Shown: in pieces, positions 5,936 through 57,522 of the stretch
Layout of the letters: each line of letters opens with the position of its first letter
Numbering within the stretch: position 1 is the first letter of the stretch
IMG/VR virus record: IMGVR_UViG_3300009503_000018
Coordinates: 75,528-139,527 of that record
Origin: a virus
Reading direction: 5' to 3' (one strand)
DNA length: 64,000 bases
Notes under the pieces: generated by a model
What the model was told of the DNA's origin: nothing
The model's database searches: none
Seen by the model: only the letters and a program-made list of their open reading frames with translations
Made by a program: the position numbers and the translations under genes

Positions 5936-7969
5936 TTAATGTTCTCCTGAAAGGTCATATTCTTCGATATGGGTAACATGATTTTGTTTCACGGCTCGAA
6001 TTTCTTTATCGAATCTCCCGCTATCGCGAACACTTCGATGGTTCGTAATAACAAGAACGGTCCTACCATCGCCGGTAAGATGTTCGAGAAGTTTGCACAT
6101 TTGTTCTTCGCCCCAAGTATCCAAATTCGCAAATGGCTCATCCAGTAGCAACAAATTTACATTCGCATCTGCTTGTTCCATTGACAGATCTCCGAAAGCT
6201 CCAGTAATGGCCAAACTCAATGCGGCTTTTTCACCTCCTGAATAAAACCGTATCGGGACGTGTTTTTTATTTCCGTCTTTGACCAAAATGTCAAGTTCGG
6301 TTTTTACTCCTTTGCCATCTGCTTTTGGAACTTCTGTAACCAATTCTGCGTGAACTTCTCCATCCGTCAGGATAGACAAATATTTAGCTAGTGAATTATT
6401 AAACGCGTCGCGACTCGAATGAATTTTGAACGATTTAAAACCTTTATCTCCAATAAGTTCTTCGCATCGCTCAATATACTTAATGCTTTTTTCATTTTTC
6501 TCATTAATAGTAATTTGGTGCTGTAATTGCTTGTTAAGTTTTTCATATTGAGACCGGGAATTTTCGGCGGTTTCAATCTGTGTTTTCAACTGTGTATACG
6601 CTTGTGTAAGATGGAGTTGCTCAGCCAAGAGATCTTTCTTTTCCTCCTCAATTTTTTCCGGAATATGAACACCGGTCCCGATACACTCTTTTAGAGTTTT
6701 GAGTTGTTCTACTACCTTTTGTAGGTCGTTGCTTGCTGTTTGTAGAAGGGCGTGATTTGCCGTCATGTCAGCTTCATACGCCCGCATATCTCGTAATACT
6801 CCCTGTGTACTTTTCTGTGTAGAAAGCATTTGTTGGAGCGCGTCTTTTAGAGCGTCTCTCTTTTTCGTCAACTCTTTAATGGTCCGTGTATATTTCGTAT
6901 GCAAACTTTGGCGCAACTCATCAGAAACCGCTTGTTCACACTCCGCACATTCCCCTTTCAAAGATTCCACATGTTGTAGCCGCATCTCCGCCTGCCGTAC
7001 TTCCGCGTTTGCCATTGCATGTTTATTTTGGAGATCGCAGACTTGTGCATTAATCGCCTCAACTTCTGCTTCAAGCTGTGCCGACGTTTTAAATGTCGAA
7101 AACCGAAAACTAAAATCTTCTGCCTTTTGGCTGCACGTTTTCGCTAATTGCTGAACGCGATCTTTTAATAGACGCTCTTTAGTTTGTAGTTCTGCAATAA
7201 GTCGAAGTTTCTTTGCCTCTTCTTCCAACGAGGCAAGTTCGTCTGCAATAACACGCAGTCGTGCTTGTTGTTCTTGGAGTTCCCGCGACCATTGAGCAAT
7301 TTCTTCGGGTGCGACCAGTGTTTTTGCCATCGCGGCAACTTGCGCTTGAAGTGTTGTTACAACCCCTTGCCCTTTCAGCAATTCTTGACGCAGGGATTTT
7401 CTCCACTCGCTCGCCACTTTGATATATTTGTCGCACTCGTCGAGATTCAAGATATTTCCAAAAATAGCTTTCCGCTCTTTGTCAGTACGTGTAATAAAAT
7501 CAGCTATTTTCGATTGTGGAATATACGCTTGATTGACGAATTGGTCATATGTCATTCGAATATGATCCCGAATGATTTTTTTGGTATCCGTATTTCGAGC
7601 GCCTTTTTCTGGTTGCCAGTTTTGGCCGTCCCACCGATACAACGTCCAATGCGTGCCTTCCTTCGGATGCTGCCGTGCATAAACAACATAATACGGCACA
7701 CCAGCATCGTCAATAAACGAAACTGCTATGCGACATCCCTGGTCACGTCGAACCGTATTAATGACGGTATCGTGAGTTGAACCGTCGTCGTTTTCTTCAA
7801 ATAAAGCAGTCGTAATGGCTTTAAAAATAGAACTTTTTCCCGCCCCAGACGAAATACCACGATCACGATTTTCGCCGGTGACGAGATATAACTTCCCGGG
7901 CTCAAAATCGAGGACTTGTTTGTCCCCATAAGACCGAAACCCCTCAATTTCGACCGAACGAATGATCAT
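5936..7969 (-). CDS. sbcC: SbcC/Rad50/gp46-like SMC-family ATPase subunit of a recombination nuclease
   Basis: Walker A GAGKSS, Q-loop, long coiled coil with CAEC zinc hook, signature YSGGEK, Walker B LLLLDEPF, H-loop ITNH. Confidence 0.92.
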   Translation of the reverse strand: MIIRSVEIEGFRSYGDKQVLDFEPGKLYLVTGENRDRGISSGAGKSSIFKAITTALFEENDDGSTHDTVINTVRRDQGCRIAVSFIDDAGVPYYVVYARQHPKEGTHWTLYRWDGQNWQPEKGARNTDTKKIIRDHIRMTYDQFVNQAYIPQSKIADFITRTDKERKAIFGNILNLDECDKYIKVASEWRKSLRQELLKGQGVVTTLQAQVAAMAKTLVAPEEIAQWSRELQEQQARLRVIADELASLEEEAKKLRLIAELQTKERLLKDRVQQLAKTCSQKAEDFSFRFSTFKTSAQLEAEVEAINAQVCDLQNKHAMANAEVRQAEMRLQHVESLKGECAECEQAVSDELRQSLHTKYTRTIKELTKKRDALKDALQQMLSTQKSTQGVLRDMRAYEADMTANHALLQTASNDLQKVVEQLKTLKECIGTGVHIPEKIEEEKKDLLAEQLHLTQAYTQLKTQIETAENSRSQYEKLNKQLQHQITINEKNEKSIKYIERCEELIGDKGFKSFKIHSSRDAFNNSLAKYLSILTDGEVHAELVTEVPKADGKGVKTELDILVKDGNKKHVPIRFYSGGEKAALSLAITGAFGDLSMEQADANVNLLLLDEPFANLDTWGEEQMCKLLEHLTGDGRTVLVITNHRSVRDSGRFDKEIRAVKQNHVTHIEEYDLSGEH

Positions 7970-7977
7970 TGCTTGGT
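7966..7977. repeat. 12-nt direct repeat TCATTGCTTGGT, downstream junction of the tnpB cassette
   Basis: Identical to 9166-9177, exactly 1200 bp away; contains the sbcC ATG on the minus strand. Confidence 0.9.
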
Positions 7978-8100
7978 GACGACATCCTCAGTCAATGACA
8001 AGGACTTCTCAGGTTAACCTGAAGGCTCCGTCCAAGCCGAAGGATATTTATCGCTGCATTCACATCTCTGTCAAGTAGTAAACTACACGAACACGAGTGT
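7976..8100 (-). ncRNA. Predicted omegaRNA (reRNA) scaffold copy 1, overlapping the tnpB 3' end; guide predicted as CAAGCAATGATCATTCGTTC (7975-7956)
   Basis: Known TnpB omegaRNAs overlap the CDS 3' end and run to the right end. Hairpins TCAGG-TTAA-CCTGA and TCCT...AGGA are present. The 5' boundary is unknown and is set here by homology to copy 2. Confidence 0.75.
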
Positions 8101-9113
8101 ATTCGTTCTGACAATGTTTTTTGTCGAACCAATCCACATTGTGAACAGGTACTTGACGTGCCACGAGGTGGGACCTTGACGAATCGGCGTCCAGCCTCTT
8201 CCGCTTTGACACCAAGAATGTCGAGGAATCGTGACCATGCAGCATCTGTTATAGATTTAGATTTATTGAGCCCGCTCGTTGACTTGTGTGTCATTTCACG
8301 CACATCTAAATCCTCAACGACGATCATTGCATTCTCAGAAACAATTCGATGGGCAAGTTTATGCTGAAAATCATTTCGTTGATTTGTTATTTTCGCATAT
8401 AACCTGGCGAGGTATGCTTTCGCCTTTTCTCGACGCTTCGAGCCTCGATTCTTTCGACTAAGCGCTCGCTGAGCTGCGCTCAGCCGCTCTTCAGTTTTTC
8501 GATACCATCGTGGATTCTCGATTTTTTCACCGGTAGACAACGTGGCAAAACTCTCTAAACCCATATCAATACCAATTTCTGCGGTTGCTTCAGGGTATGG
8601 TTTGGCAGGAACATCAGCGCAGGAAAATATCGCATACCATTTTCCTGCTCGACGCTTGAGGGTGAGCATCTTTGGTTTTCCAGTAATTGGTCGGTGAAAC
8701 CGAATCCGAACACACCCAATACCACCAAGACGGATTTTCTTCGGGCTAATCAAACGAAAGCCAATATCCTGAGGCCATGTCAGGCTATTATAACGATCTC
8801 GTCCTTTGAACCTTGGATAACCAGGCTTTTCGCCATTTTTTACACGCCCGAAGAATTGTTGAAATGCAAAATCGACACGGTAAATTACCTGTTGAAGAAC
8901 CTGCGCATAAATATTCGCGAATTCAGGTCGTTCTTGTTTGACAACGGGAAGTTCTTTTGATTGTTCAAAAAAGCCAATACGCACACCATGTTTCCAGGCT
9001 TCGCGCTCTTTGATCGCCGCATTGTACAATTCACGGCAATATCCAAGCCACAGGTCTAATTGTTGTGCTTGTACCTTGGTTGGATATATGCGATATTTAA
9101 ATGCTCTATGCAT
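7992..9113 (-). CDS. tnpB: TnpB RNA-guided endonuclease (373 aa from MHRAFKY), RuvC triad intact
   Basis: AFKYRIYPT N-terminus, RFKG, RuvC-I IGIDMG, RuvC-II IVVEDL, Zn finger CSQCG...HSCSC, RuvC-III DRDVNAAINI. Confidence 0.95.
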   Translation of the reverse strand: MHRAFKYRIYPTKVQAQQLDLWLGYCRELYNAAIKEREAWKHGVRIGFFEQSKELPVVKQERPEFANIYAQVLQQVIYRVDFAFQQFFGRVKNGEKPGYPRFKGRDRYNSLTWPQDIGFRLISPKKIRLGGIGCVRIRFHRPITGKPKMLTLKRRAGKWYAIFSCADVPAKPYPEATAEIGIDMGLESFATLSTGEKIENPRWYRKTEERLSAAQRALSRKNRGSKRREKAKAYLARLYAKITNQRNDFQHKLAHRIVSENAMIVVEDLDVREMTHKSTSGLNKSKSITDAAWSRFLDILGVKAEEAGRRFVKVPPRGTSSTCSQCGLVRQKTLSERIHSCSCSLLLDRDVNAAINILRLGRSLQVNLRSPCH

Positions 9114-9165
9114 TAATAGACATATTAGGCTACGTACTTTATAGTAGCGGCGGAGGGACTCGAAC

Positions 9166-9177
9166 TCATTGCTTGGT
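9166..9177. repeat. 12-nt direct repeat TCATTGCTTGGT, upstream junction of the tnpB cassette
   Basis: Identical to 7966-7977; contains the TGA stop of the 82-aa gene. Confidence 0.9.
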
Positions 9178-9414
9178 ATGCATTTCAAAAGCGAATGCTA
9201 CTGTATACCCTTCAACTCGTTGTTCGTCAAGTACTGAATTTAACAGTTCTTTCGTCGGACATACAACGACTCGTCTTTTCTCTATACCTTCTTTCTGAAG
9301 GACCGCGACATATGAAACAGCGTTATGCTGTATAGATTTATGCACCGATAAAAGAAGATCTGCAAACTCATCAACGGAAACTGGTTTTTCTATTTCTATA
9401 TGTTTTCTATTCAT
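9166..9414 (-). CDS. Small hypothetical protein between sbcD and sbcC
   Basis: 82 aa; ATGA overlap with sbcD. Confidence 0.75.
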   Translation of the reverse strand: MNRKHIEIEKPVSVDEFADLLLSVHKSIQHNAVSYVAVLQKEGIEKRRVVVCPTKELLNSVLDEQRVEGYTVAFAFEMHTKQ

Positions 9415-10487
9415 ATTGTATCAATCCGTCGTTCAATTTCTTTTAAATACTCCAGCAATTCCGGGTCATTATCGACTTGCTGCACGTAAGAAAGTAATTG
9501 CTTTCCAATTGGAATTCTTTTGTTGATTTTTGCATTGACATTTAAGGGAGTTGTCGCTTTCGCCTGCATACGGACCTTTGCCGAAGCCGCCCCCATCGCC
9601 CGCAGGCGTTTCTCTAGTTCTCGTCGAACAGACACAGGAGCTTGACCATTATGTTCTACAACCATAAATACAACATTGCCCACAACGTTTTTCTCAATTT
9701 GGAGCATTTCTTCTATATCACCAGCCCAAGTTTTCACAACATTAATGATTTTAGGAAAAGGCGATTCAACAAATTCAACTGCAATCGACGATTCAACGTC
9801 GACAATAAGAGCCCCTTTCGCACCTTGATCGCCGTCTTGGACGCGCTCTAATGGCGTTCCAATATGCCAGGCAGGGACATTTTCAAATTTGAGTTCTTGA
9901 CGTAAGTGAATATGCCCTCCCAGCACGTAGGATAATTCAGAACGGTCAATGGTTTCTCGGACAATTCCTGTTGTGGCGGCATATTTTCCATCTCGTGAAT
10001 GTCCGATGACGGAATCATGGAAAAACAGAACATTAATATCGTGCGGACTTAAGTCATACTCGAACTGTGTGTAACCATAGGGCAAAAAGTGCAATAACAG
10101 CCCATTAAAGTCTAGGACACCGGGCTTGTCAAACACAACAATTTTATCGTCGTCATTCCATATTTGTACGCCGTTATAACTGTGCCATTGTCCTGTCTTG
10201 TCATACAAATCGTGGTTGCCAAGAAGACACGCAATACGAACATTGTCGCGGCGAAATCGGTTGAGCCGCTCGTCCGCTAAGTCCCGCATCCATGCTGGTG
10301 GTCTGTGAGGTTTAAAGCGGTCTCCACCAAAAATTACTGCGTCGGCCTTTTTTTGTAAAGCAAGTTCTCGAACCCAGTCCCACACATTCAGCGTATCAAG
10401 CAACCGGCTGTTAAAACCGGTTTTCTGGTCAATATGACCTTCGCTATATTCGCCGATGTGACCATCGCTAAACACGACGAGTTTCAT
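9411..10487 (-). CDS. sbcD: SbcD/Mre11/gp47-like metallophosphoesterase nuclease subunit
   Basis: Motifs SDGHIG, GGDRF, LGNHD and GGHIH. Confidence 0.92.
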   Translation of the reverse strand: MKLVVFSDGHIGEYSEGHIDQKTGFNSRLLDTLNVWDWVRELALQKKADAVIFGGDRFKPHRPPAWMRDLADERLNRFRRDNVRIACLLGNHDLYDKTGQWHSYNGVQIWNDDDKIVVFDKPGVLDFNGLLLHFLPYGYTQFEYDLSPHDINVLFFHDSVIGHSRDGKYAATTGIVRETIDRSELSYVLGGHIHLRQELKFENVPAWHIGTPLERVQDGDQGAKGALIVDVESSIAVEFVESPFPKIINVVKTWAGDIEEMLQIEKNVVGNVVFMVVEHNGQAPVSVRRELEKRLRAMGAASAKVRMQAKATTPLNVNAKINKRIPIGKQLLSYVQQVDNDPELLEYLKEIERRIDTI

Positions 10488-11509
10488 AAGGTTTCTCGAA
10501 TATGAGGCAACCCTTCATTATATGCCGCTGGTGTAATTTCAATAAATTCTGCTTTTTGTTGTAATTCTTGAATGTTTTTTGCTCCACAATACGTCAAACC
10601 AGACCGCAAACCGCCAATCAGATCTCGTACAACATTCTCTACTGGACCTTTACACGGGACTTTGATAGAAATCCCCTCCGCTGTTTTCCACTCTGGTACA
10701 TCACCATAGTAGTCACGATGCGCCTCAACAGAGGCCATGCCACGAAATATTTTATAGTTATTCGGGCCGTCCCAAATCTCTTCGCCGGGAGTTTCGTCTG
10801 TACCAGCCAACAAACCGCCAACCATAACCATAGTCGCTCCGGCAGCGAGCGCTTTTACTACATCTCCCGGGAAACGAATTCCTCCGTCCGCTATTACTGG
10901 ACGACCGGTCCTACTGCAATCCATAATCGCTGTAATTTGTGGAACACCAAACCCGGTTTTTAGGCGTGTTGTACATACTGACCCTGGACCGATACCAACC
11001 TTGATTGCATCGGCACCACAACTAGCCAAATAATCAGCGCCGGCGGCCGTGGCGACATTTCCAGCGATAATATAAATATTCTTTTTAAACTTTTCCCGTA
11101 ACGCTTTAATCATTTTGCCGGTCAATCGTGAATGACCGTGGGCTACATCAACGCAAAATAGCGTTGCACCAGCATTATACAATGCTTCAGCGCGATCCAA
11201 TCCTTCATTAACACCTACCGAGACTCCTACGATGGGATATTTATTGTCTTGTGATTGTGTTGCCTTTTTATATTCATTGACATTTTCTTCAATTGAAATA
11301 AAACGATGCAATATCCCTAGACACCCCAATTCCCACATCTTTCTTGCCATTACTGCTCCACAAATTGTATCCATATTTGCTGCAATAATAGGCACTTTAA
11401 ATAAATACGGACCTAATGACGCTTCGGTAGAGACCGCCGACCGAGAAGAGAAATGATTATAATTGGGCTGTAACAACAGATCATCAAAAGTTAATCCACG
11501 ACGGATCAT
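10484..11509 (-). CDS. IMPDH/GMP reductase family oxidoreductase without CBS domains
   Basis: [41 protein letters not shown] (catalytic Cys), IADGGI, FRGMAS, AEG. Start MIRRG at 11509 forms an ATGA overlap. Confidence 0.9.
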
Positions 11510-11853
11510 TTCTCTCTCTCCCAAGGATAAACAACATATTGATCTATTTCTCGCACCCAATATGTCGGCACAAACGGACAATGTTTGTGCTTGTGGAGTG
11601 TAGCGATATCGTATTTATCTATAAAAGGAGATAGAGTTTTTCCACTATCTGCAATATCGTCCACGACGAGACTGTGTTCTTCGGGCTCATCAAACTTGAG
11701 AGGGAGGTCAAGCAAATGCGATAACGTAACACCAAGGGGCAGACCGCCCCGTGGGAGACTGAAAATGGATGAATACTTTTTTCCTTTTTTACGGATTTGC
11801 GCTACGAGTTGAGACACGTCCGTGTCGAAATCTGCCCACGAATACACAATCAT
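11506..11853 (-). CDS. Type I phosphoribosyltransferase (Gpt/xanthine-guanine-like)
   Basis: SLPRGGLPLG, PRPP-binding LVVDDIADSGKT, C-terminal YVVYPWE. Confidence 0.85.
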   Translation of the reverse strand: MIVYSWADFDTDVSQLVAQIRKKGKKYSSIFSLPRGGLPLGVTLSHLLDLPLKFDEPEEHSLVVDDIADSGKTLSPFIDKYDIATLHKHKHCPFVPTYWVREIDQYVVYPWEREK

Positions 11854-12869
11854 GAATTGTTTTTTTGGATAGCAATGTTTTCTTGAATTTTCTTTAACAT
11901 TTCAGGATGTTCCACGAGAAAAGCTCGGGCATTGTCAGCGCCCTGTCCAATACGCTCTCCCTCAAAGGAATACCACGCCCCTGTTTTTTCGATGACACCT
12001 GTATCGACGCCGTAATTGAGCCAGCATTTGACAACATCAAACCCCTCCCCATAGATCAAATCGAATTCCGCTTCGCGAAATGGGGGAGCGACTTTATTCT
12101 TTACGACTTTGACTTTCATTGTATGACCAATAACTTCTTCACCATTTTTCAGTGTTGTGCTCTTTCGCACGTCGAGGCGCACCGAAGCATAAAACTTTAG
12201 GGCATTTCCTCCAGTTGTTGTTTCAGGATTTCCAAACATTACTCCGATTTTCTGGCGCAATTGATTAATAAAAATAATCGAGGATCGGTGCTTATTCAAG
12301 TTACTGGTGATCTTGCGCATCGCTTGCGACATGAGGCGAGCTTGCAAGCCCATATGCGCACTCCCCATTTCTCCCTCGATTTCTGCTTTCGGGACGAGAG
12401 CTGCTACCGAATCTACCACGATCAAGTCCACGCCGGCTTCAATAGCAAAATCAGCCATTTCTAGCGCTTGTTCCCCACTATCTGGCTGAGATACTAGTCC
12501 TTTCGACAAATCGAGTCCCAACCGCTGAGCATACTGCAAATCCAAAGCATGTTCTGCATCAATGTAATGAACTATTCCGCCTAATGATTGGGCTCGGGCA
12601 GCAACCTGAATTGCTAATGTCGATTTCCCCGTTGCCTCGGGACCGTAAATTTCGACCATTCGTCCGCGCGGGATACCGCCTACGCCCAATGCGTTATCAA
12701 GAGGTGGAATGCCGGTCGGAATAACTTCAACACTAGGAAGTTCTTGCTGCCCGCCCAACACAAAAGCGGACTCAGCGCCGAATTTCTTCGTAAAACCCGA
12801 AAGATAATTCTCGATGTCTTTTGATGGACTTGGTGAAGCAAACATTTTCTTTTCCTTTGGCGGAACCAC
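11850..12869 (-). CDS. recA: RecA recombinase, bacterial type
   Basis: GGIPRGRMVEIYGPEATGKST, IDAEHALD, VDSVAALVPKAEIEGEMG, FINQLRQKIGVMFGNPETTTGGNALKFYASVRLDVR. Confidence 0.97.
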   Translation of the reverse strand: MVPPKEKKMFASPSPSKDIENYLSGFTKKFGAESAFVLGGQQELPSVEVIPTGIPPLDNALGVGGIPRGRMVEIYGPEATGKSTLAIQVAARAQSLGGIVHYIDAEHALDLQYAQRLGLDLSKGLVSQPDSGEQALEMADFAIEAGVDLIVVDSVAALVPKAEIEGEMGSAHMGLQARLMSQAMRKITSNLNKHRSSIIFINQLRQKIGVMFGNPETTTGGNALKFYASVRLDVRKSTTLKNGEEVIGHTMKVKVVKNKVAPPFREAEFDLIYGEGFDVVKCWLNYGVDTGVIEKTGAWYSFEGERIGQGADNARAFLVEHPEMLKKIQENIAIQKNNS

Positions 12870-12870
12870 G

Positions 12871-14040
12871 TTACCTCCACGTCACTTTAGGGCGTCTTGG
12901 TGCCGAAACCGGCATCGGCGACGGTTCAGAAGACGGCTCAGGAGTTGAAGTCACTGATTCAGGGACTCGCGGCGAAGGAACAACCGGTTTTGGACTAAGC
13001 TCGACTGGGCTTACAGGACGAGGAACGGAGTTATTAGGAGCCACTTCCGCGCTGGGCTCGACGGGCTTTGAAAAAGCTACCGATGCCGGAGCCACGGGAC
13101 GCGGCGGCGTCATAAACTTTTTTGTCCGTACTGGTGTACCCGAACCAAAACTTTGAACATACGCTTGTTTTTGCTCAGGAGTCCAAACCTGAACCCACTG
13201 CGCCGGATCGGGAATATCTTCCGCCGCTTGAAGATACGCCACTACCTCTCCGGGAAGATTCGGGATTTCATCTTCAATTTCAATAAAGTATTCGCAAAAC
13301 TGGGAACCCCGCGTATTATCGCGCGTTACATTCACGACACGATACCCACCAGACTCAAAGTCCCAGAATTTCTTTAGTTTCTGTTTGCGGTACAACTGAC
13401 CGATGATTGAGTCCGGACCAAAATACCCCTGAATTCGGACATGACCGCCGTCCTCTTCTTCGAGGGGCTTTTGACCTAAAGCCTTCGCGACATCGAAAAC
13501 GGCAAAGTAATATCTGTCGACGGGTCCCCAAGCCTTGGCAAGGTCACGAACAGCGCTTACCTCGGGATGCTGCGCGATAACGGTAAAAAATTCGTCCTTT
13601 GCAATATTTTCGAGACCTGCCGCTTTCCGCTTTTCAGTGTACTCATCCCAAAACAACTGAGCGTGCCGGCAAAATACACATTCGTCAGTGTCGAACACCG
13701 GCGGGACCGGCTGACCAGCGCGCGATAAAGATTTCGCTTGCTTGTTCATCTGCGTTTCACAAGCAACCATAACCCGACGGAAATTACTATCATCGGCGGG
13801 AGCTAGTTCAACCCAGTGAACAGCCAACTTGGCGTAATAATTGACCATATCAGGCCAATGCCGGAAAAATGTGAAGCGGTTCAAATTAAAAGCGAGAAAA
13901 AACAGTCTATTCTCCGCAGCTTTCCGTTCTTCGCTTGGGAGCATACGGAACAAGTTCGGATCACGCTTAAAATTCTTTCGTGAACCCTCTTCTCCCGGAC
14001 TCTCCACGTCTACCTCTTGCGGATAATTCAACTCAACCAT
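12871..14040 (-). CDS. Probable ssDNA-binding protein (gp32-like) with Pro-rich C-tail
   Basis: Directly upstream of recA; CVFC, RYYFAVFD and VVNVTRDNTRG...Y segments resemble gp32-like SSBs. Confidence 0.55.
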   Translation of the reverse strand: MVELNYPQEVDVESPGEEGSRKNFKRDPNLFRMLPSEERKAAENRLFFLAFNLNRFTFFRHWPDMVNYYAKLAVHWVELAPADDSNFRRVMVACETQMNKQAKSLSRAGQPVPPVFDTDECVFCRHAQLFWDEYTEKRKAAGLENIAKDEFFTVIAQHPEVSAVRDLAKAWGPVDRYYFAVFDVAKALGQKPLEEEDGGHVRIQGYFGPDSIIGQLYRKQKLKKFWDFESGGYRVVNVTRDNTRGSQFCEYFIEIEDEIPNLPGEVVAYLQAAEDIPDPAQWVQVWTPEQKQAYVQSFGSGTPVRTKKFMTPPRPVAPASVAFSKPVEPSAEVAPNNSVPRPVSPVELSPKPVVPSPRVPESVTSTPEPSSEPSPMPVSAPRRPKVTWR

Positions 14041-14068
14041 GTTACCTCCGTTAAAAATAACGACTCAA

Positions 14069-14077
14069 AGTATACCA
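14069..14077 (-). promoter_or_regulatory. Extended -10 promoter (TG-G-TATACT) upstream of the SSB-recA operon
   Basis: Intergenic TGGTATACT followed by a GGAGG SD. A TTGACA at 14106-14101 is 26 nt away, too far to be the -35. Confidence 0.45.
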
Positions 14078-14114
14078 TCCATACACCACACGGGAATACT
14101 TGTCAAGAGCATAA

Positions 14115-14348
14115 TTAATCCATTGGAACTAAAGGTGCTGTTAGTACTTTTGGTTCGTCCCACCACTGGATATGTCCCAATGTTTCCCAACATTTAATAA
14201 AATTTACAGCCGCATTCCAATTTGGAAAATTATAGCGCTGAATAACTGGGCTGGCGAATACGGCCCGTGAATGTTCGACATACGTCAGTTCAACAGAACC
14301 GTCGTCTTGTTCTATCAGTTGAATGCCTTTTCCAAAGCCACGTGACAT
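14115..14348 (-). CDS. Small hypothetical protein
   Basis: 77-aa ORF on the coding strand. Confidence 0.65.
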   Translation of the reverse strand: MSRGFGKGIQLIEQDDGSVELTYVEHSRAVFASPVIQRYNFPNWNAAVNFIKCWETLGHIQWWDEPKVLTAPLVPMD

Positions 14349-14361
14349 GTAAATGCCCTTC

Positions 14362-14970
14362 TCAATTGATATTCGACTGCAACGTCGCTCTTCGATCAGC
14401 GGCGAGAGTCCTGATACTCCAAATTTTATTGTTAAATGCGGCGGAAATCGCTTTTAATTGTCGTGTTTTATGCTGTAAGGATAACAGGTGTGTCTGGGCA
14501 TCCTCGTATGAAGGAGCATAAATATACATCTCTTCTTTGAATTCCTCTGCGCTTTTCGGGGTTAATCCAATACCGGACACTTCTGCAACATACCCTTTAT
14601 ACGCAATCTCAGCATATTCATCTTGATTCGCGTTTTTAGAGAAAATTAACACCGCCGCATTTTCTTTTGCAGCTACTGTCGGATTTTTTTCTCCACTCCC
14701 TTTGAGATAATACTTAGCGTACTTCTCTATATGGGCCATGTACTGCGCATAATCAATTTTTTCGAACCGATCTTTTGCCAATTCCGCGTCGATTGCCAAT
14801 TGGGACCAGAAATGTTCCTGAGCTGAACACTCCCTGACTTCACGTTCTAAATCGCTTTCGTCTACCACGAGCATCTCAGAAATGATGAATTCTTCATTTC
14901 CGTGCTCATCAGACACGACGACACGGAAATCTTGAGTCGTTTGGCCGTGGATAATAACGTTAATCGACAT
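14362..14970 (-). CDS. Helical protein, possibly a UvsY-like recombination mediator
   Basis: C-terminal LKAISAAFNNKIWSIRTLAADRRA resembles UvsY-like proteins; near SSB and recA. Start MSINV is assumed; the ORF track starts at 15039. Confidence 0.45.
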   Translation of the reverse strand: MSINVIIHGQTTQDFRVVVSDEHGNEEFIISEMLVVDESDLEREVRECSAQEHFWSQLAIDAELAKDRFEKIDYAQYMAHIEKYAKYYLKGSGEKNPTVAAKENAAVLIFSKNANQDEYAEIAYKGYVAEVSGIGLTPKSAEEFKEEMYIYAPSYEDAQTHLLSLQHKTRQLKAISAAFNNKIWSIRTLAADRRATLQSNIN

Positions 14971-15076
14971 TGTTCGACGACGTTGGACACCCCCAGTCGA
15001 TGGTGGGAGCTTCTCCGCAATCTGGAGAGCCCCCACCATTTAACCACAACACCGGATGATGCGCCATTAGTCAGGT

Positions 15077-15289
15077 TTAACCAACGGCTACCCGATCAGC
15101 CACTTCGGTCTTGACCATCGAGAAAATATAAGTGGCCAAAAGACGAAGCCGATCGCTCTGACTCTTGGTCTGAGTCAGACCCCGAACGCCCAGCTCTTCG
15201 AGATCGCGAAGGAGAGCACGGGTTCTCTGTCGCGCACGGGGATGTAGTGCGACACCTTCGACTGTGCTTGGGACTAGCTTATTAGCCAT
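15077..15289 (-). CDS. Small hypothetical protein (MANKLVPST...)
   Basis: AGGAGG SD 6 nt before the ATG at 15289. Confidence 0.7.
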   Translation of the reverse strand: MANKLVPSTVEGVALHPRARQRTRALLRDLEELGVRGLTQTKSQSDRLRLLATYIFSMVKTEVADRVAVG

Positions 15290-15313
15290 TTCGGACCTCC
15301 TTTTTGAAATTTC

Positions 15314-15373
15314 GTGACGGCACCCCAACAGGGCTTCTCGGGATAACCCCGACGGCTCCGTCCGAGCCTAAGC
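15314..15373 (-). ncRNA. Diverged omegaRNA/right-end scaffold copy 3
   Basis: CTTAGGCTCGGACGGAGCCGTCGGGGTTATCCCGAGAAGCCCTGTTGGGGTGCCGTCAC aligns with copy 1 (GGCTTGGACGGAGCC...GAGAAGTCC...GTCGTCAC). The stem TCAGG/CCTGA becomes TCGGG/CCCGA. Confidence 0.7.
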
Positions 15374-15381
15374 TTAATACC

Positions 15382-15506
15382 GTGACGACATCCTCAGTCA
15401 ATGACAAGGACTTCTCAGGTTAACCTGAAGGCTCCGTCCAAGCCTGAGTATATTTATCGCTGCATTCACATCTCTGTCAAGTAGTAGACCACACAAACAC
15501 GAGTGT
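15382..15506 (-). ncRNA. Orphan omegaRNA scaffold copy 2 (tnpB 3' remnant)
   Basis: 119/125 nt identical to 7976-8100 by hand count. It encodes only the last ~36 TnpB codons and has no upstream tnpB body. Confidence 0.8.
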
Positions 15507-15541
15507 AATCCACCGCCGCTTTTGATCAATCATTCTGCCAC

Positions 15542-15724
15542 TTAACCCAATTCATTATTTACGGGAACAATCCGCCAATTCAAACTAGGCATTCTCTCTC
15601 GTACATCGTCTAAGCACACTAAGATCTCCTCTAAGCTATGAGGCTCACCAAAGGGTCTCCATTCACTATACTGCTCATCTTTTAGACTCCATTCAAGAAT
15701 CCACTTATCTAGTATACTGCTCAT
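15542..15724 (-). CDS. Small hypothetical protein whose 5' end is triplicated
   Basis: 60 aa; DKWILEWSLKDEQ is encoded by the repeat at 15667-15709. Confidence 0.55.
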   Translation of the reverse strand: MSSILDKWILEWSLKDEQYSEWRPFGEPHSLEEILVCLDDVRERMPSLNWRIVPVNNELG

Positions 15725-15755
15725 CTTTTAGACTCCGTTCAAGAATTCATTTATC
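15667..15755. repeat. Tandem 43-nt direct repeat (period 46), with a third copy at 16077-16118
   Basis: TATACTGCTCATCTTTTAGACTCCATTCAAGAATCCACTTATC at 15667-15709; variant at 15713-15755; diverged copy at 16077-16118. Confidence 0.85.
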
Positions 15756-15788
15756 CATCTGTGCGACCGACGAACGCGCTTTCCGTTA

Positions 15789-16058
15789 TCAACGATGTAG
15801 ACCATACAAACGCTTCTCTGAGTAGTGAATGTGACACAGCCACAGATAGCCGCCCGGTGTTGGCATGCCACACGTCCCGTCGCTGCGACAACCCGCCATG
15901 TCGCATACCGGCACGAACTGCGTCACCGCCTTACACTTTGGACACCCTTCGACGATATCGTTCAAATTAAACGGGTTTGGCGCCTTGAGAATTTTGGCCG
16001 TAGGCAATAGCGTGTCACACGCCCGACAACGACTATGGCGCGGTGTCTGCATTTTCAC
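15789..16058 (-). CDS. Cys-rich small protein (multiple Zn sites)
   Basis: CRAC, CPKC, CDMAGC, C...CHIH; GAGGTG SD. Confidence 0.7.
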   Translation of the reverse strand: MKMQTPRHSRCRACDTLLPTAKILKAPNPFNLNDIVEGCPKCKAVTQFVPVCDMAGCRSDGTCGMPTPGGYLWLCHIHYSEKRLYGLHR

Positions 16059-28300: not shown

Positions 28301-31300
28301 ACGGTCCAAGAATACTAAAGACCGCCAAGACCAACTCTCCGCTCGTAGACAGTGTAGAGGTCGGCCCAACAGTCAGACTCGTCCCTACGCCCGTATTTGT
28401 TGCCGTCTGATCGGCCATACAAACTGAAGCATTAAGGACACTAATCGCTACTCCATTAAATTGTTGCCCATTATTGACGGAAACGATAATCGTGTCCGTC
28501 CCAGCCGTTAAATTACTTCCGAGAACACGTGAAAAGACATATACCCGACCGTTGCCTCCTGAAGTCACTGACGCATCGAGATTGTACGTCCCTCCTTGAG
28601 TATCAACGCAGGTCGGGGGTGTCGGATCTTGAGTCGTCGAGGCAGTACCAACACAGACGATAACTTTATTCCCAGTAAAAACTGTTGATGTAATCCCAAC
28701 CGTCGCTGTCTGAATTCCCGAAATTGTTTGGAATGTTCCAGCAACTGCAACTGTCGGCGGTGTAGCCGCCGTTTCGTATGTCACTAATGCGGCCGCATAA
28801 TTTCGACTGATATTATTGGTTCCTGTCGCTGTCTGCGCTGAGGTGTCTCCATTGTTCGGAAGAATCGTCAATACAGAAGATTCTTTTCGAAAAGGTGTCG
28901 TATTTCCTGCGACGCCTGGAGTATTCGCCGTGACGGTAATCGTGTTAGACGTGACATCTAAAGTCGTTGTTGCCTCGCCGACGGCATTCACCAATGCCGT
29001 TAGCCCCGAATACGTAAACCCAACACCAGAAGGATTTATGGGAACAAGCATCGTCCCACCACAAATCCCTGAAGCATTACTATCAAATTCATATCCGACT
29101 GAACCAATAACCAACACGTCCCCATCAGCAGGTTGACCACTATACGTAATCAATCCACCAGCGTTCAGTGCAGTTCCGCCGGACAAAAATCCGGGATTCC
29201 CCGTAATCAACGTAAAAGCAGGAGGAGAAGCTGCATTTCCTAAAAAGATAATCTGGTTTCCAGAAAGACCTTCCTGTGCTTGAATAAGGATTTGGTTGGT
29301 GTCCGTATTAATCGTTGCACTCACCAATGAGGATTCAATGTTGATTTCTTGAGTTAATTGAATATAGGGCTGATCAATCGTGTCTTGCGGAGGCGGATTA
29401 TTCGGATCCAGATCTTGAATATGAATCGGGATTGCACCTGGCTGAACAGCCGGCAAACTCCCACCAAACAAAAATCCCCCAGAAGGATTTAGCGTAATCG
29501 CAGTCGAATTTGCTTGGAATGATATGGTATCGCCTATTGGACCAATAATTTTTGCTCTAAACGTAATTGTTTTAGCAGTTGTATCGAGTACCGCAGTAAC
29601 CATCGAGCCCAAAAATGCAACGACGTTTGACTGTAAGATCGAGAAAGTCTCATCGTCTGTAGCACCGATAACAGACTGAATATGTCCAGGAGCGACCACA
29701 CAATCCGAATCAAATTCAAAAACAACTCCACCGAGAGTAAAAGTGTCCCCATCGGCAGGTTGTCCGCTGTACGTTAGTACGCCGGAAGAACGAGAACCGA
29801 TGTCAAATTCAAAAACTTGATTACCAATATGGACAAAGTCGCCATCTTGAGGATATCCGGTATAAGAGATAATTCCAGAAGCGCTCTGCGTTTCGTTCTT
29901 AAAAACGACTTTTTGCATGCGACTATCATTGGCGACGTGGAATTCAAGAAGCGTTTTATTGGTGCATTCCCACACCAAATCATCTATGGTAGCTAAAGCG
30001 CCTGGACCGGCCGGATCAGGAGAAACCGTGATCAATAATTGTGCGAATTTTGTAGTCGGCGGAGGTGTTGCTTCTAAACTAAAAGACGAATAATCTTGCG
30101 ATGGAGCAGGCAACAGAATACCAGTATCGTCTGATCCCAACAAAGTTTGATTTTGGTCAAAATATTGAAATGTATACTTAAATTGCGCCGAAACAGCCGG
30201 AGAAATAGCGGCGCCCACTGTCGTCGGCGCCTCAGACAACGAATGAAAAATCGTATACGCCGCACCATTCAACGGTCTTCGATAAACAAAATACCGACTA
30301 TTATTGACTGGTGTAGGAGATCCACCCCAATCCCCAACACCGATTACGGTGTGATCTATAAACAAAATATCACGAACAATCTGCCGATGAACCCCATTAA
30401 TAATCGTGTCAACTCGGATTTTATCTCGTACATAGAACAGCCCAGGATTGAAAGAAGGGGCGGTTTGAACACCGGCGGCGATAAAATCTTGTGTTGGATC
30501 TATCAGCCCTTTTGACGTGTACGTTACTGGAACAAGAGATGCACCACCAGAAACATAAACATCCTTCGGAGTTCCATTCGGTCCTTTCCGCCAAAGATCA
30601 ATAGCTAGTACGCTGACGAAGACGCCTTTAATTACGCCGTCAAATAAATGAACCCCATCGTCAATATGCACCACCATTCCGACTTTAACACCCAGATCAA
30701 CGAAATTAACACTCAAATCTGTGAGGGTTACTGTGACTTGATCTGGGGTCGAAATTATCGGATCCTCTCCTACTTGTTTATCAACATAACCAAAAACGGC
30801 GTTCGATGTCTGCCAAGTAAAAAGTGTTGGAGGATTTGGCGGACTAATATAAACCGGTCCTTCATTCGTCGCCTGATGAAACCCGGTCAATTGTAATACA
30901 CATCCGCTGCTTGGTATTGATTTCTTTTCTGTTTTTATAGTATTGACTACGTCAACAAGGGTCGTGCCGACCAAGGTTCGTCTCGTGCGGACAGCCAACG
31001 AGGTATGTCCACTGTGAGATTTACTCGTCGTAATAAAGAAATCGGGTCCGTCGGTCGTGTCCCATTCCGTAAACCCATTATTAAAACTTCCATTCCCTAA
31101 CAGCTTCGTCCCTATCAAGCCAGGATACGGAGAGTCTTTTGTGGCTTTTACAACAGCGCTGCCTGTTCCAAAAATAGCCGCATCAATGCTCTTCGGTAGC
31201 GACAGAGACCCTGTTGGAGCCTCAATACGCCAATCAAACGGTTGTGATCCCTGTAATCCAGGAGGTGGCGGAGCGTTTTGTCGAGTAAAATTATCCAATC

Positions 31301-55111: not shown

Positions 55112-55197
55112 CCGTCCCTCCTATTTACCACAACTTTTTTCGAGCGGGTCTGATTCGGATATTGACAGAACGGCCAACAGTTGAAATAAAGACAGAG

Positions 55198-56788: not shown

Positions 56789-57522
56789 TAGCTTGGATTC
56801 CTCCGTGCCGTGAGAATGCTCGTTGCAAAACTCTTTACACTTTCGTATTCCGCATGCTTAGAAATATACAGCAAATCATCGTCTGTATACAAGTCCGCGT
56901 CACTATCAAGTTCCTTTAGCGCATCGAGTGAGGTAATCTGTCCACGCCGGGTTTTCTCAACAAGGGCTTCGGCACGCACGGAACGCCCGTCCTTGAGGAC
57001 CGGCGGCGGAGGTGGTTCATTTAGTCGACGCTCGTATTCCGCAACCTGCGCCGCGATAGTTGGATCGTTGGTCGCAGGTTCGAGTTGTGCCGTTCGCTCA
57101 TTAATTACTTGCTCCTGAAGAGGATTGATCGCGACATCGTGTGCCTTTTGACGCGGCTGCTCGTTCTTTGCTAGAGCTGCCAACCGTGCCTCGTGCGCAC
57201 GCTCGGCTTCGAGGGCGCGTTCGTACTCTTCCTTACTCACAATCTGGAGCCAGCCCTTTGCTAGCGCTTGACGAAAATCCGGAGAATCACGCCAATACTC
57301 GATGGGGTACTTTTCAGTCAAATTGATCGGAAGACGAGACCGCTCGATCAAATACCCCACATGACCCGATTCACTGCCGACACGCCCAAACCCAATTGAC
57401 ACACAGCCTTTCGTCGTATTTTTTACAATCAAAACCTTCTCGTCGCCGTAAAAATCACGAAGCGCCTCCTTCAGGCGTTCCTCAACTCGACGACGATTTT
57501 CTTCTTCATTAACGATTGCCAT
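56788..57522 (-). CDS. Hypothetical head-region protein
   Basis: 244 aa, GGAGG SD, coiled-coil middle. Confidence 0.7.
   Translation of the reverse strand: MAIVNEEENRRRVEERLKEALRDFYGDEKVLIVKNTTKGCVSIGFGRVGSESGHVGYLIERSRLPINLTEKYPIEYWRDSPDFRQALAKGWLQIVSKEEYERALEAERAHEARLAALAKNEQPRQKAHDVAINPLQEQVINERTAQLEPATNDPTIAAQVAEYERRLNEPPPPPVLKDGRSVRAEALVEKTRRGQITSLDALKELDSDADLYTDDDLLYISKHAEYESVKSFATSILTARRNPS

Follow-up and report, generated by a model that had tools for sequence, protein, structure and literature searches.

TnpB genes are among the most abundant genes of prokaryotes, and most copies stand without a transposase. A cassette in the DNA of an uncultured phage bears on the question of how such orphan copies persist and move. 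The cassette, a tnpB gene with its predicted guide RNA, lies in a stretch of 64,000 nt (positions 75,528 to 139,527 of the IMG/VR virus record IMGVR_UViG_3300009503_000018), hereafter called the window. The whole record (G000) is 139.5 kb long and an estimated 77% complete. The cassette is inserted between orf82 and sbcC, and near-identical phages carry at this site either the cassette or an empty site that matches its guide. Its anatomy rules out canonical transposition and records its previous address in a tRNA-Leu fragment. The reading that we favor, with a probability of roughly 0.55, is that the TnpB-omegaRNA cassette homes by RNA guidance into cassette-free co-infecting relatives.

Empty alleles and the boundaries of the insertion

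On the minus strand, the gene order is recA, a phosphoribosyltransferase (PRT)-like gene, an IMPDH/GMP-reductase gene, sbcD, orf82, tnpB, and sbcC, with tnpB in the same orientation as the recA-sbcD-orf82-sbcC operon. A first-pass annotation, made from the letters of the window, had reported identical 12-mers exactly 1200 bp apart around tnpB and ATGA stop/start overlaps at the three upstream junctions of the operon, and had predicted that removal of 1200 bp would give one more such overlap. The 12-mer, ACCAAGCAATGA on the minus strand, is present as TCATTGCTTGGT on the plus strand at 7966-7977 and 9166-9177, exactly at the reported spacing. The minus strand reads ...GAAATGCAT ACCAAGCAATGA / GTTCGAG...(tnpB)...GATGTCGTC ACCAAGCAATGA TCATTCG..., and the upstream overlaps at 9411-9414, 10484-10487, and 11850-11853 are real. 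A 12-mer common to two 150-nt flanks is not very rare, with a chance of about 1-2% according to a cross-locus null. This repeat is nevertheless linked to the insertion, because natural empty alleles carry a single copy.

The empty allele had been set beforehand as the test of the prediction. IMG/VR scans with orf82 and SbcD gave no relatives, and the empty alleles were found through protein clusters, where a single cluster among 5.8 billion sequences contains orf82. Nine contigs from several samples (L083-L091) encode the members of this cluster, and over 3.3 kb the flanks on these contigs are 98-99% identical to the window. All nine encode a 98%-identical Orf82 protein followed directly by sbcC, with the ATGA overlap between the two genes and without tnpB. 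One of them, L090, reads GAAATGCATACCAAGCAATGATCATTCGTTCGG, which is the window minus 1200 bp exactly. Its junction is GAAATGCATAC/CAAGCAATGATCATTCGTTC, that is, CATAC followed by a 20/20 match to the guide described below. The duplication claimed earlier is thus linked to the insertion, and its length had to be corrected: the true target duplication is 10 nt (CAAGCAATGA), not 12, because the AC of the right 12-mer is the conserved end of the element (GTCGTCAC in five copies). The 10-nt repeat terminates exactly at the orf82 stop codon, so that, as first proposed, both the orf82 stop and the sbcC start are preserved. Precise deletion via this repeat would be possible and would recreate exactly the guide-matching site.

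The right end of the element is exact in five copies with four different flanks. The copies all end in ...GATGTCGTCAC and then diverge into CAAGCAATGA, GGTATTAAGC, GCTTAGGCTC, or AGAGTTGTAT, which places the right end at 7976. In TnpB systems, the DNA that follows the right end of the element on its 3' side serves as the guide (Karvelis 2021, PMC8612924). Since the right end abuts the target exactly, the guide by this rule is 7975..7956, CAAGCAATGATCATTCGTTC, the sequence that had been named at the outset. The last 65 nt of the element fold into three hairpins, with 100% of cells paired and three compensatory pairs relative to a second, diverged scaffold in the tandem arrangement at 15373..15314. 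These features suggest a structured omegaRNA scaffold at the 3' end of tnpB, with a fixed right end and a variable guide. An Rfam scan of 7700-15800 matched no family and found no intron ribozyme. A search with the right-end pattern gave no match in IMG/VR and one contig (L093) among metagenome contigs.

The tnpB product has the Pfam domains HTH_OrfB_IS605 (PF12323), OrfB_IS605 (PF01385), and Cas12f1-like_TNB (PF07282), all above cut-offs, and matches the ISDra2 TnpB chains 8bf8 and 8h1j of the PDB with E = 4e-45. Its RuvC residues D183/E267/D350 align to D191/E278/D361 of 9yyg, a 408-aa TnpB-like chain (an AI-designed nuclease), and the matched range of 9yyg coincides with that of the ISDra2 TnpB chains. 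From this shared range and the known catalytic residues of ISDra2, we take the three residues to be the counterparts of the ISDra2 triad. The RuvC triad of the gene is therefore intact, in line with the first-pass annotation. The reported lack of tnpA also stood: Y1 TnpA (PF01797) is absent from the 139.5-kb record, and control genomes scored positive. TnpB genes are common in sequenced phages (597 matching GenBank records), the best being from Thermus phages at 46-49% identity. Reference genomes were considered as a source for the transposon-adjacent motif (TAM), and were set aside as too distant, with best matches of 48% identity in metagenome-assembled genomes of Chloroflexota.

Other insertion sites and the previous address

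The insert begins with 24 nt (9165..9142) that repeat, without a mismatch, the 3' end of a tRNA-Leu(CAA) encoded by the same phage (G000 55120-55205), from the T-loop to 3 nt past the discriminator. In a sibling contig, L092, an intact tRNA-Leu directly adjoins a copy of the element that is 97% identical over 1190 nt. L092 is syntenic with the tRNA-Leu region of G000 at 96% identity, and that site is empty in G000. The two copies share 51 nt upstream of the tnpB ATG, 24 of them tRNA-Leu. We conclude that the copy at the sbcC site derives from one at the tRNA-Leu site and brought 24 nt of left flank along, with an exact junction on the right. The L092 contig ends at the right end of the element, and the right flank of the tRNA-Leu copy is missing. 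The tRNA fragment, the other insertion sites, and a decayed copy at 15.3-15.5 kb (see below) were all absent from the first-pass annotation.

Two further copies, with 97% identity, lie in contigs L094 and L095 and code for an intact TnpB of 372 aa. The flanks of L094 map downstream of tRNA-Ile in G000, at ~29.3-29.8 kb, where G000 holds the empty allele ...CTGAAGTAC/AGAGTTGTATAAAGTGACTG, a 20/20 match to the L094 guide preceded by GTAC (AAGTAC). The phage of the window would thus itself be a target of the L094 cassette (site G000 29440-29470). The L094 element homology starts 1 nt before the tnpB ATG and is preceded by AAAGTTGTATAGAGTGA, a copy of the first 17 nt of the target matching at 15/17 positions; the motif before this copy is TGC in place of TAC.

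Single-copy empty alleles therefore prove two independent insertions with duplications, of 10 nt at sbcC and 17 nt in L094. Both have an exact right junction, whereas the left boundaries within the cassette differ, at -75 and -1 relative to the ATG. Together with the tRNA-Leu site, presence/absence polymorphism is seen at three sites among phages that are 96-99% identical, which shows recent movement of the cassette.

More distant relatives show what an ordinary member of this subfamily looks like. TnpB genes of 68-70% identity occur in the phage or environmental contigs L186-L190, where they lie between a capsid gene and the next structural gene, and in L191, and their right ends carry the same AGTCGTCAC. 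In L186 and L191, each end bears a CCCC...GGGG hairpin, and a TnpA remnant of 39 aa survives in L187 and L188. TTAC or CTAC stands 7-14 nt upstream of their conserved left-end block, and TTAC stands 13-15 nt upstream of five hairpin-only elements of the same type. At the cassette sites the corresponding motifs are ATAC (sbcC), GTAC (tRNA-Ile side), and CTAC (tRNA-Leu), with TAC in common with the relatives. In the two verified empty sites the guide match is preceded by xTAC, and a TAM ending in TAC is plausible.

Such relatives invite the explanation that the cassette is an ordinary non-autonomous IS200/IS605 element (IS1341-type), mobilized in trans by the Y1 TnpA of a host or co-infecting phage, with TnpB acting only in restoration. 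Insertion after xTAC resembles the TTAC target of IS608-type TnpA, the 70% relatives keep both a TnpA remnant and the left-end hairpin, and L092 itself (1-1140) carries a complete unrelated insertion sequence (IS) of the IS605 type (Y1 TnpA and a distant TnpB), which, by comparison with G000, entered after TTTAC. The TnpB beside this TnpA, however, belongs to a different subfamily, and the record of the window has no TnpA. The window cassette lacks the subterminal left-end hairpin: the 52 nt upstream of tnpB are the tRNA fragment and a 28-nt leader. Its left boundary differs from that of the L094 copy, the 24-nt tRNA-Leu flank traveled with it, and the target was duplicated by 10 and 17 nt, whereas peel-and-paste transposition makes no duplication. 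We consider mobilization in trans very unlikely for these reasons. Peel-and-paste by TnpA is excluded for the visible moves, because they lack the left-end hairpin, have a variable left boundary, carried the old flank, and duplicated the target. The cassette has thus relocated by a non-canonical route.

Flank duplication is not a general feature of phage TnpB loci: in 79 distant IMG/VR TnpB loci, the longest word shared between upstream and downstream flanks matches the cross-locus null. Within the subfamily it is seen in three of six elements (the window, L094, and L186, but not L191, L212, or L213), and the one in L186 could be a pre-existing tandem repeat. A predicted empty site of the L186 phage was discarded, its 16-mer matches being chance hits in unrelated contexts.

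Proposed RNA-guided homing and its alternatives

The first-pass annotation had also proposed that the guide targets cassette-free alleles beside CATAC, and that the element spreads by phage recombination rather than transposition. Of these claims, the guide match beside CATAC and the incompatibility with canonical IS200/IS605 transposition are borne out; the targeting itself and the use of the neighboring RecA/SbcCD genes in the spread are what we infer. The homing that we favor would run as follows. In this reading, the cassette descends from an IS605-family element that lost TnpA and the left-end hairpin. It reached the orf82/sbcC overlap by recombination, without TnpA, from a copy just downstream of the phage tRNA-Leu; 24 nt of the tRNA came with it, and the first 10 nt of the new target were duplicated, which spared the orf82 stop and the sbcC start. 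The predicted omegaRNA guide CAAGCAATGATCATTCGTTC matches cassette-free relatives right after CATAC. During co-infection, TnpB-omegaRNA would cut these empty alleles, as well as revertants that arise by precise deletion via the 10-12-nt repeat. The break may be repaired from the occupied genome so that the cassette is copied in (non-restorative homing, or gene drive), or the competitor may at least be disadvantaged. Homing is the best reading of the locus; cleavage, licensing by the TAM, and biased inheritance are its unproven steps.

Variation among the empty alleles is consistent with this reading. L086-L089 have a C to T change at target position 16, L083-L085 have CACAC together with G17A, and L091 has C1T in the target, so that three of the four empty haplotypes carry a change in the TAM or target. 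The 25-nt window of CATAC plus 20 has 4 variable columns against a mean of 0.85, a value reached by 3.6% of such windows. This polymorphism fits, to a modest degree, selection for sites that resist cutting. The occupied allele would be protected: its self junction is CATAC+CAAGCAATGA+GTTCGAGTCC, where only 10 nt of guide match stand beside CATAC, probably too few for cleavage.

The same 10-nt match has another possible meaning. The cassette might have been domesticated, either for self-regulation through this partial match (TAM plus a 10-nt seed 52 nt upstream of tnpB) or as a multi-guide weapon served in trans by orphan scaffolds at 15.3-15.5 kb. At that locus, two right-end scaffolds lie in tandem upstream of the gene 15289..15077, one a remnant of the resident type, 94.6% identical over 129 nt and with a different flank, the other older and diverged; the first scaffold is followed by the tail of the tnpB of the second element. 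In relatives the locus occurs as a 242-nt version (L093, L098) or with the hairpins deleted (L097, L100), and at least three different deletion states are seen among them. Since close relatives have deleted the hairpins, the scaffolds are not maintained, and the idea of a maintained trans-guide array was rejected. Moreover, the RuvC triad is intact, unlike in known nuclease-dead regulators, and the absence of the cassette from most close relatives shows that it is dispensable. A domesticated function is accordingly highly improbable. Upstream of the remnant locus, the window (15660-15770, minus strand) contains a ~45-nt tandem duplication (GAA(C/T)GGAGTCTAAAAGATGAGCAGTATA...).

A more passive history deserves greater weight. 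The cassette may have arrived by a single illegitimate recombination and be a neutral or slightly harmful passenger, now decaying, with TnpB inactive at the site; the match between guide and empty allele would then follow simply from the fact that whatever DNA lies 3' of the right end serves as the guide. Several findings favor this explanation and weigh against homing. The occupied allele was found in three contigs from three samples, all 100% identical to the window; they represent one clonal haplotype, so that spread of the cassette across backgrounds is unseen. The sister copy in L092 is frameshifted, and the copy at 15.4 kb is decaying differently in different relatives, by progressive deletions through which L097 and L100 have even lost the scaffold hairpins. 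The pN/pS (ratio of nonsynonymous to synonymous polymorphism) between the two intact copies is 0.47, from only 18 changes, which indicates weak constraint. A simple promoter scan found no promoter for tnpB, and its ribosome-binding site (RBS) is weak, with no clear one discernible. Further points weigh against homing itself: the candidate TAM would be ATAC here, versus TTAC or CTAC in the canonical relatives; two of the changes behind the modest polymorphism signal are CpG transitions; and the origin of the target duplication is unexplained. On the other hand, a random event would rarely place the right end exactly on a target after xTAC at two independent sites. The ORF (open reading frame) and catalytic triad are intact in two copies despite in-frame indels, and the empty alleles show an unusual degree of polymorphism at the TAM and target positions. 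On balance, we regard a passive passenger as possible but doubtful.

The sequence TATAAAGT just upstream of tnpB (window 9125-9141) also occurs within the duplicated target of the tRNA-Ile-side site (G000 ~29445-29460); the simple promoter scan calls no promoter there.

A working guide requires an exact right junction after xTAC. If a transmission advantage went to such junctions alone, the asymmetry between right and left would be expected. The exact right junction could instead stem from the way in which the right end is set, for example by a TnpA that cleaves in trans. As to the duplication, ISDra2 TnpB cuts 15-21 bp from the TAM (PMC8612924). The 17-nt duplication would fit a retained TAM-side cut end, and the 10-nt duplication would need trimming; a template switch during replication is an alternative source. 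A fixed staggered cut was rejected, as the lengths differ (10 and 17 nt) and the distal boundaries share no motif. Microhomology was likewise rejected: the junctions have only a 2-nt AC at the right and none at the left, and ACCAA is shared with the old tRNA-Leu flank out of register.

A broader scheme can be offered tentatively. TnpB-omegaRNA cassettes that lack TnpA and the left end may hop by recombination from locus to locus in a lytic-type phage lineage, with tRNA-Leu, tRNA-Ile, and the sbcC junction as candidate stations, and then spread as RNA-guided homing genes. The junction asymmetry would be the footprint of selection by drive, because a guide works only if the right end is joined directly to a TAM-adjacent target: the right junction is always exact after xTAC, and the left is free, carries the old flank, and duplicates the TAM-proximal 10-17 nt. 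The duplication may be protospacer retained from the cut end.

Relation to known systems, and neighboring features

The cassette resembles IS200/IS605 TnpB (ISDra2 and the TnpB-only IS1341 type) in its domain set and RuvC triad, in a scaffold that overlaps the 3' end of the gene, in a guide just 3' of the right end, and in a short motif 5' of the target. It differs in having neither TnpA nor a left-end hairpin, in a left boundary that varies between copies, in the foreign tRNA-Leu 3' end that it carries, and in its target duplications of 10 and 17 nt; to our knowledge, peel-and-paste transposition never duplicates the target. Group I introns combined with IS605 TnpB (IStrons) offer a parallel in that the insertion is made harmless to the interrupted genes. 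Here, no intron ribozyme is involved, as judged from Rfam, and a DNA duplication restores the stop and start codons.

Phages of the T4 type have homing endonuclease genes that show intronless homing and localized marker exclusion. The cassette is similar to the free-standing genes of this kind (SegF, SegB, Mob): a nuclease gene is flanked by conserved genes, some close relatives have it and others do not, the allele without the interruption in a co-infecting phage is presumed to be the target, and repair would use phage recombination genes. In the phages studied here, the presence/absence polymorphism and the 20/20 match of the guide to L090 were observed directly; specificity of cleavage for the empty allele is presumed. 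The specificity of the cassette would come from an RNA guide copied from the flank, in contrast to the protein-DNA contacts of the T4-like enzymes, and self would be distinguished by an insertion that splits the TAM from the target.

TnpB is known to cut vacant sites (Karvelis 2021, PMC8612924; Meers 2023, doi 10.1101/2023.03.14.532601) and to drive the spread of IS605 in multicopy plasmids as a gene drive (Mears et al. 2025, PMC11870625). As in the plasmid drive, element-free copies of the replicon would be cut by means of a guide taken from the insertion site, which would favor the element-bearing copies independently of TnpA. That work concerned laboratory plasmids and complete IS ends, whereas the cassette belongs to a population of lytic-type phages in which empty and occupied alleles occur naturally, and it can no longer transpose. 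A 2026 review (PMC13565253) speaks of 'transposon non-restorative homing' and treats homing between co-infecting phages as a theoretical mode only, and our literature search found no demonstration of TnpB homing into co-infecting phages. The concept is thus known; new are the evidence from a natural population, a cassette without ends, the tRNA fragment that it brought along, and a target duplication of variable length. Should cleavage be confirmed, this would be a first natural example of RNA-guided homing between viruses and would suggest how TnpB can spread without TnpA. The system offers defined sequences for this purpose, namely the guide, the candidate TAM, three natural escape-like variants, and the self site.

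The features of the locus are collected in Table 1. The phage is distant from any isolate (SbcC identity of 25%), and a DNA-level search of GenBank phages with the 6-kb region gave no match. Orf82 had no match in a Pfam search.

Table 1. Coordinates of the cassette, its target, and related features in the window
Feature	Position	Strand	Remarks
orf82, 82 aa	9166..9414	-	Upstream of the insert; final codons and stop restored by the left 10-nt copy; from the ORF list
CATAC, candidate TAM	9176..9180	-	Directly 5' of the guide-matching sequence; from the sequence
Left copy of the duplicated target, CAAGCAATGA	9166..9175	-	Target positions 1-10; single-copy in nine empty alleles
tRNA-Leu(CAA) 3'-end fragment, 24 nt	9142..9165	-	Left flank from the earlier insertion site; 24/24 match to G000 55118-55141
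Leader, 28 nt	9114..9141	-	From the tRNA piece to the tnpB ATG; no left-end hairpin; shared with L092, absent from L094
tnpB, 373 aa	7992..9113	-	RuvC triad intact; zinc-finger region
Predicted omegaRNA scaffold	7976..8104	-	5' limit approximate; overlaps the tnpB 3' end; three hairpins at ~7984-8035; right end 7976 (...GTCGTCAC)
Putative guide/target, CAAGCAATGATCATTCGTTC	7956..7975	-	Right 10-nt copy plus first sbcC codons; sbcC ATG inside the guide region
sbcC, Rad50-like ATPase, 677 aa	5936..7969	-	From the ORF list and Pfam
Decayed second copy, last 129 nt of the element	15382..15510	-	94.6% identical; ends in GTCGTCAC, then GGTATTAAGC...
Older remnant with a different but related right end	15314..15373	-	Ends in GCCGTCAC; directly upstream of the RBS of the gene 15289..15077

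Within the recA-sbcCD recombination operon, the IMPDH/GMP-reductase-family gene and the short phosphoribosyltransferase-like gene occupy 10484-11853 (minus strand), each with an ATGA overlap to its neighbor. Among the relatives of the element, hairpin-only mini elements of ~55-70 nt (L192, L193, and L195-L197) share the same CCCCTGCCTTTAGGCATGGGG hairpin with TTAC before it, and GTGTCAA forms the end of some of them. They appear to be non-coding relatives of the IS subfamily that are dispersed over viral contigs. In the groundwater phage of L186/L194 (IMG/VR 2626541855_000006), a TnpB of 70% identity, accompanied by a TnpA remnant of 39 aa, separates the major capsid gene from the structural gene that follows. 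Between TTTAC and the left end stands a diverged copy, 24-32 nt long, of the right flank, and this left copy completes the terminator hairpin of the capsid gene. Finally, in G000 (57235-57519) and in L092, a tRNA-Lys is flanked by a direct repeat of ~119 nt that includes the first 26 nt of the tRNA and an upstream promoter-like stretch.

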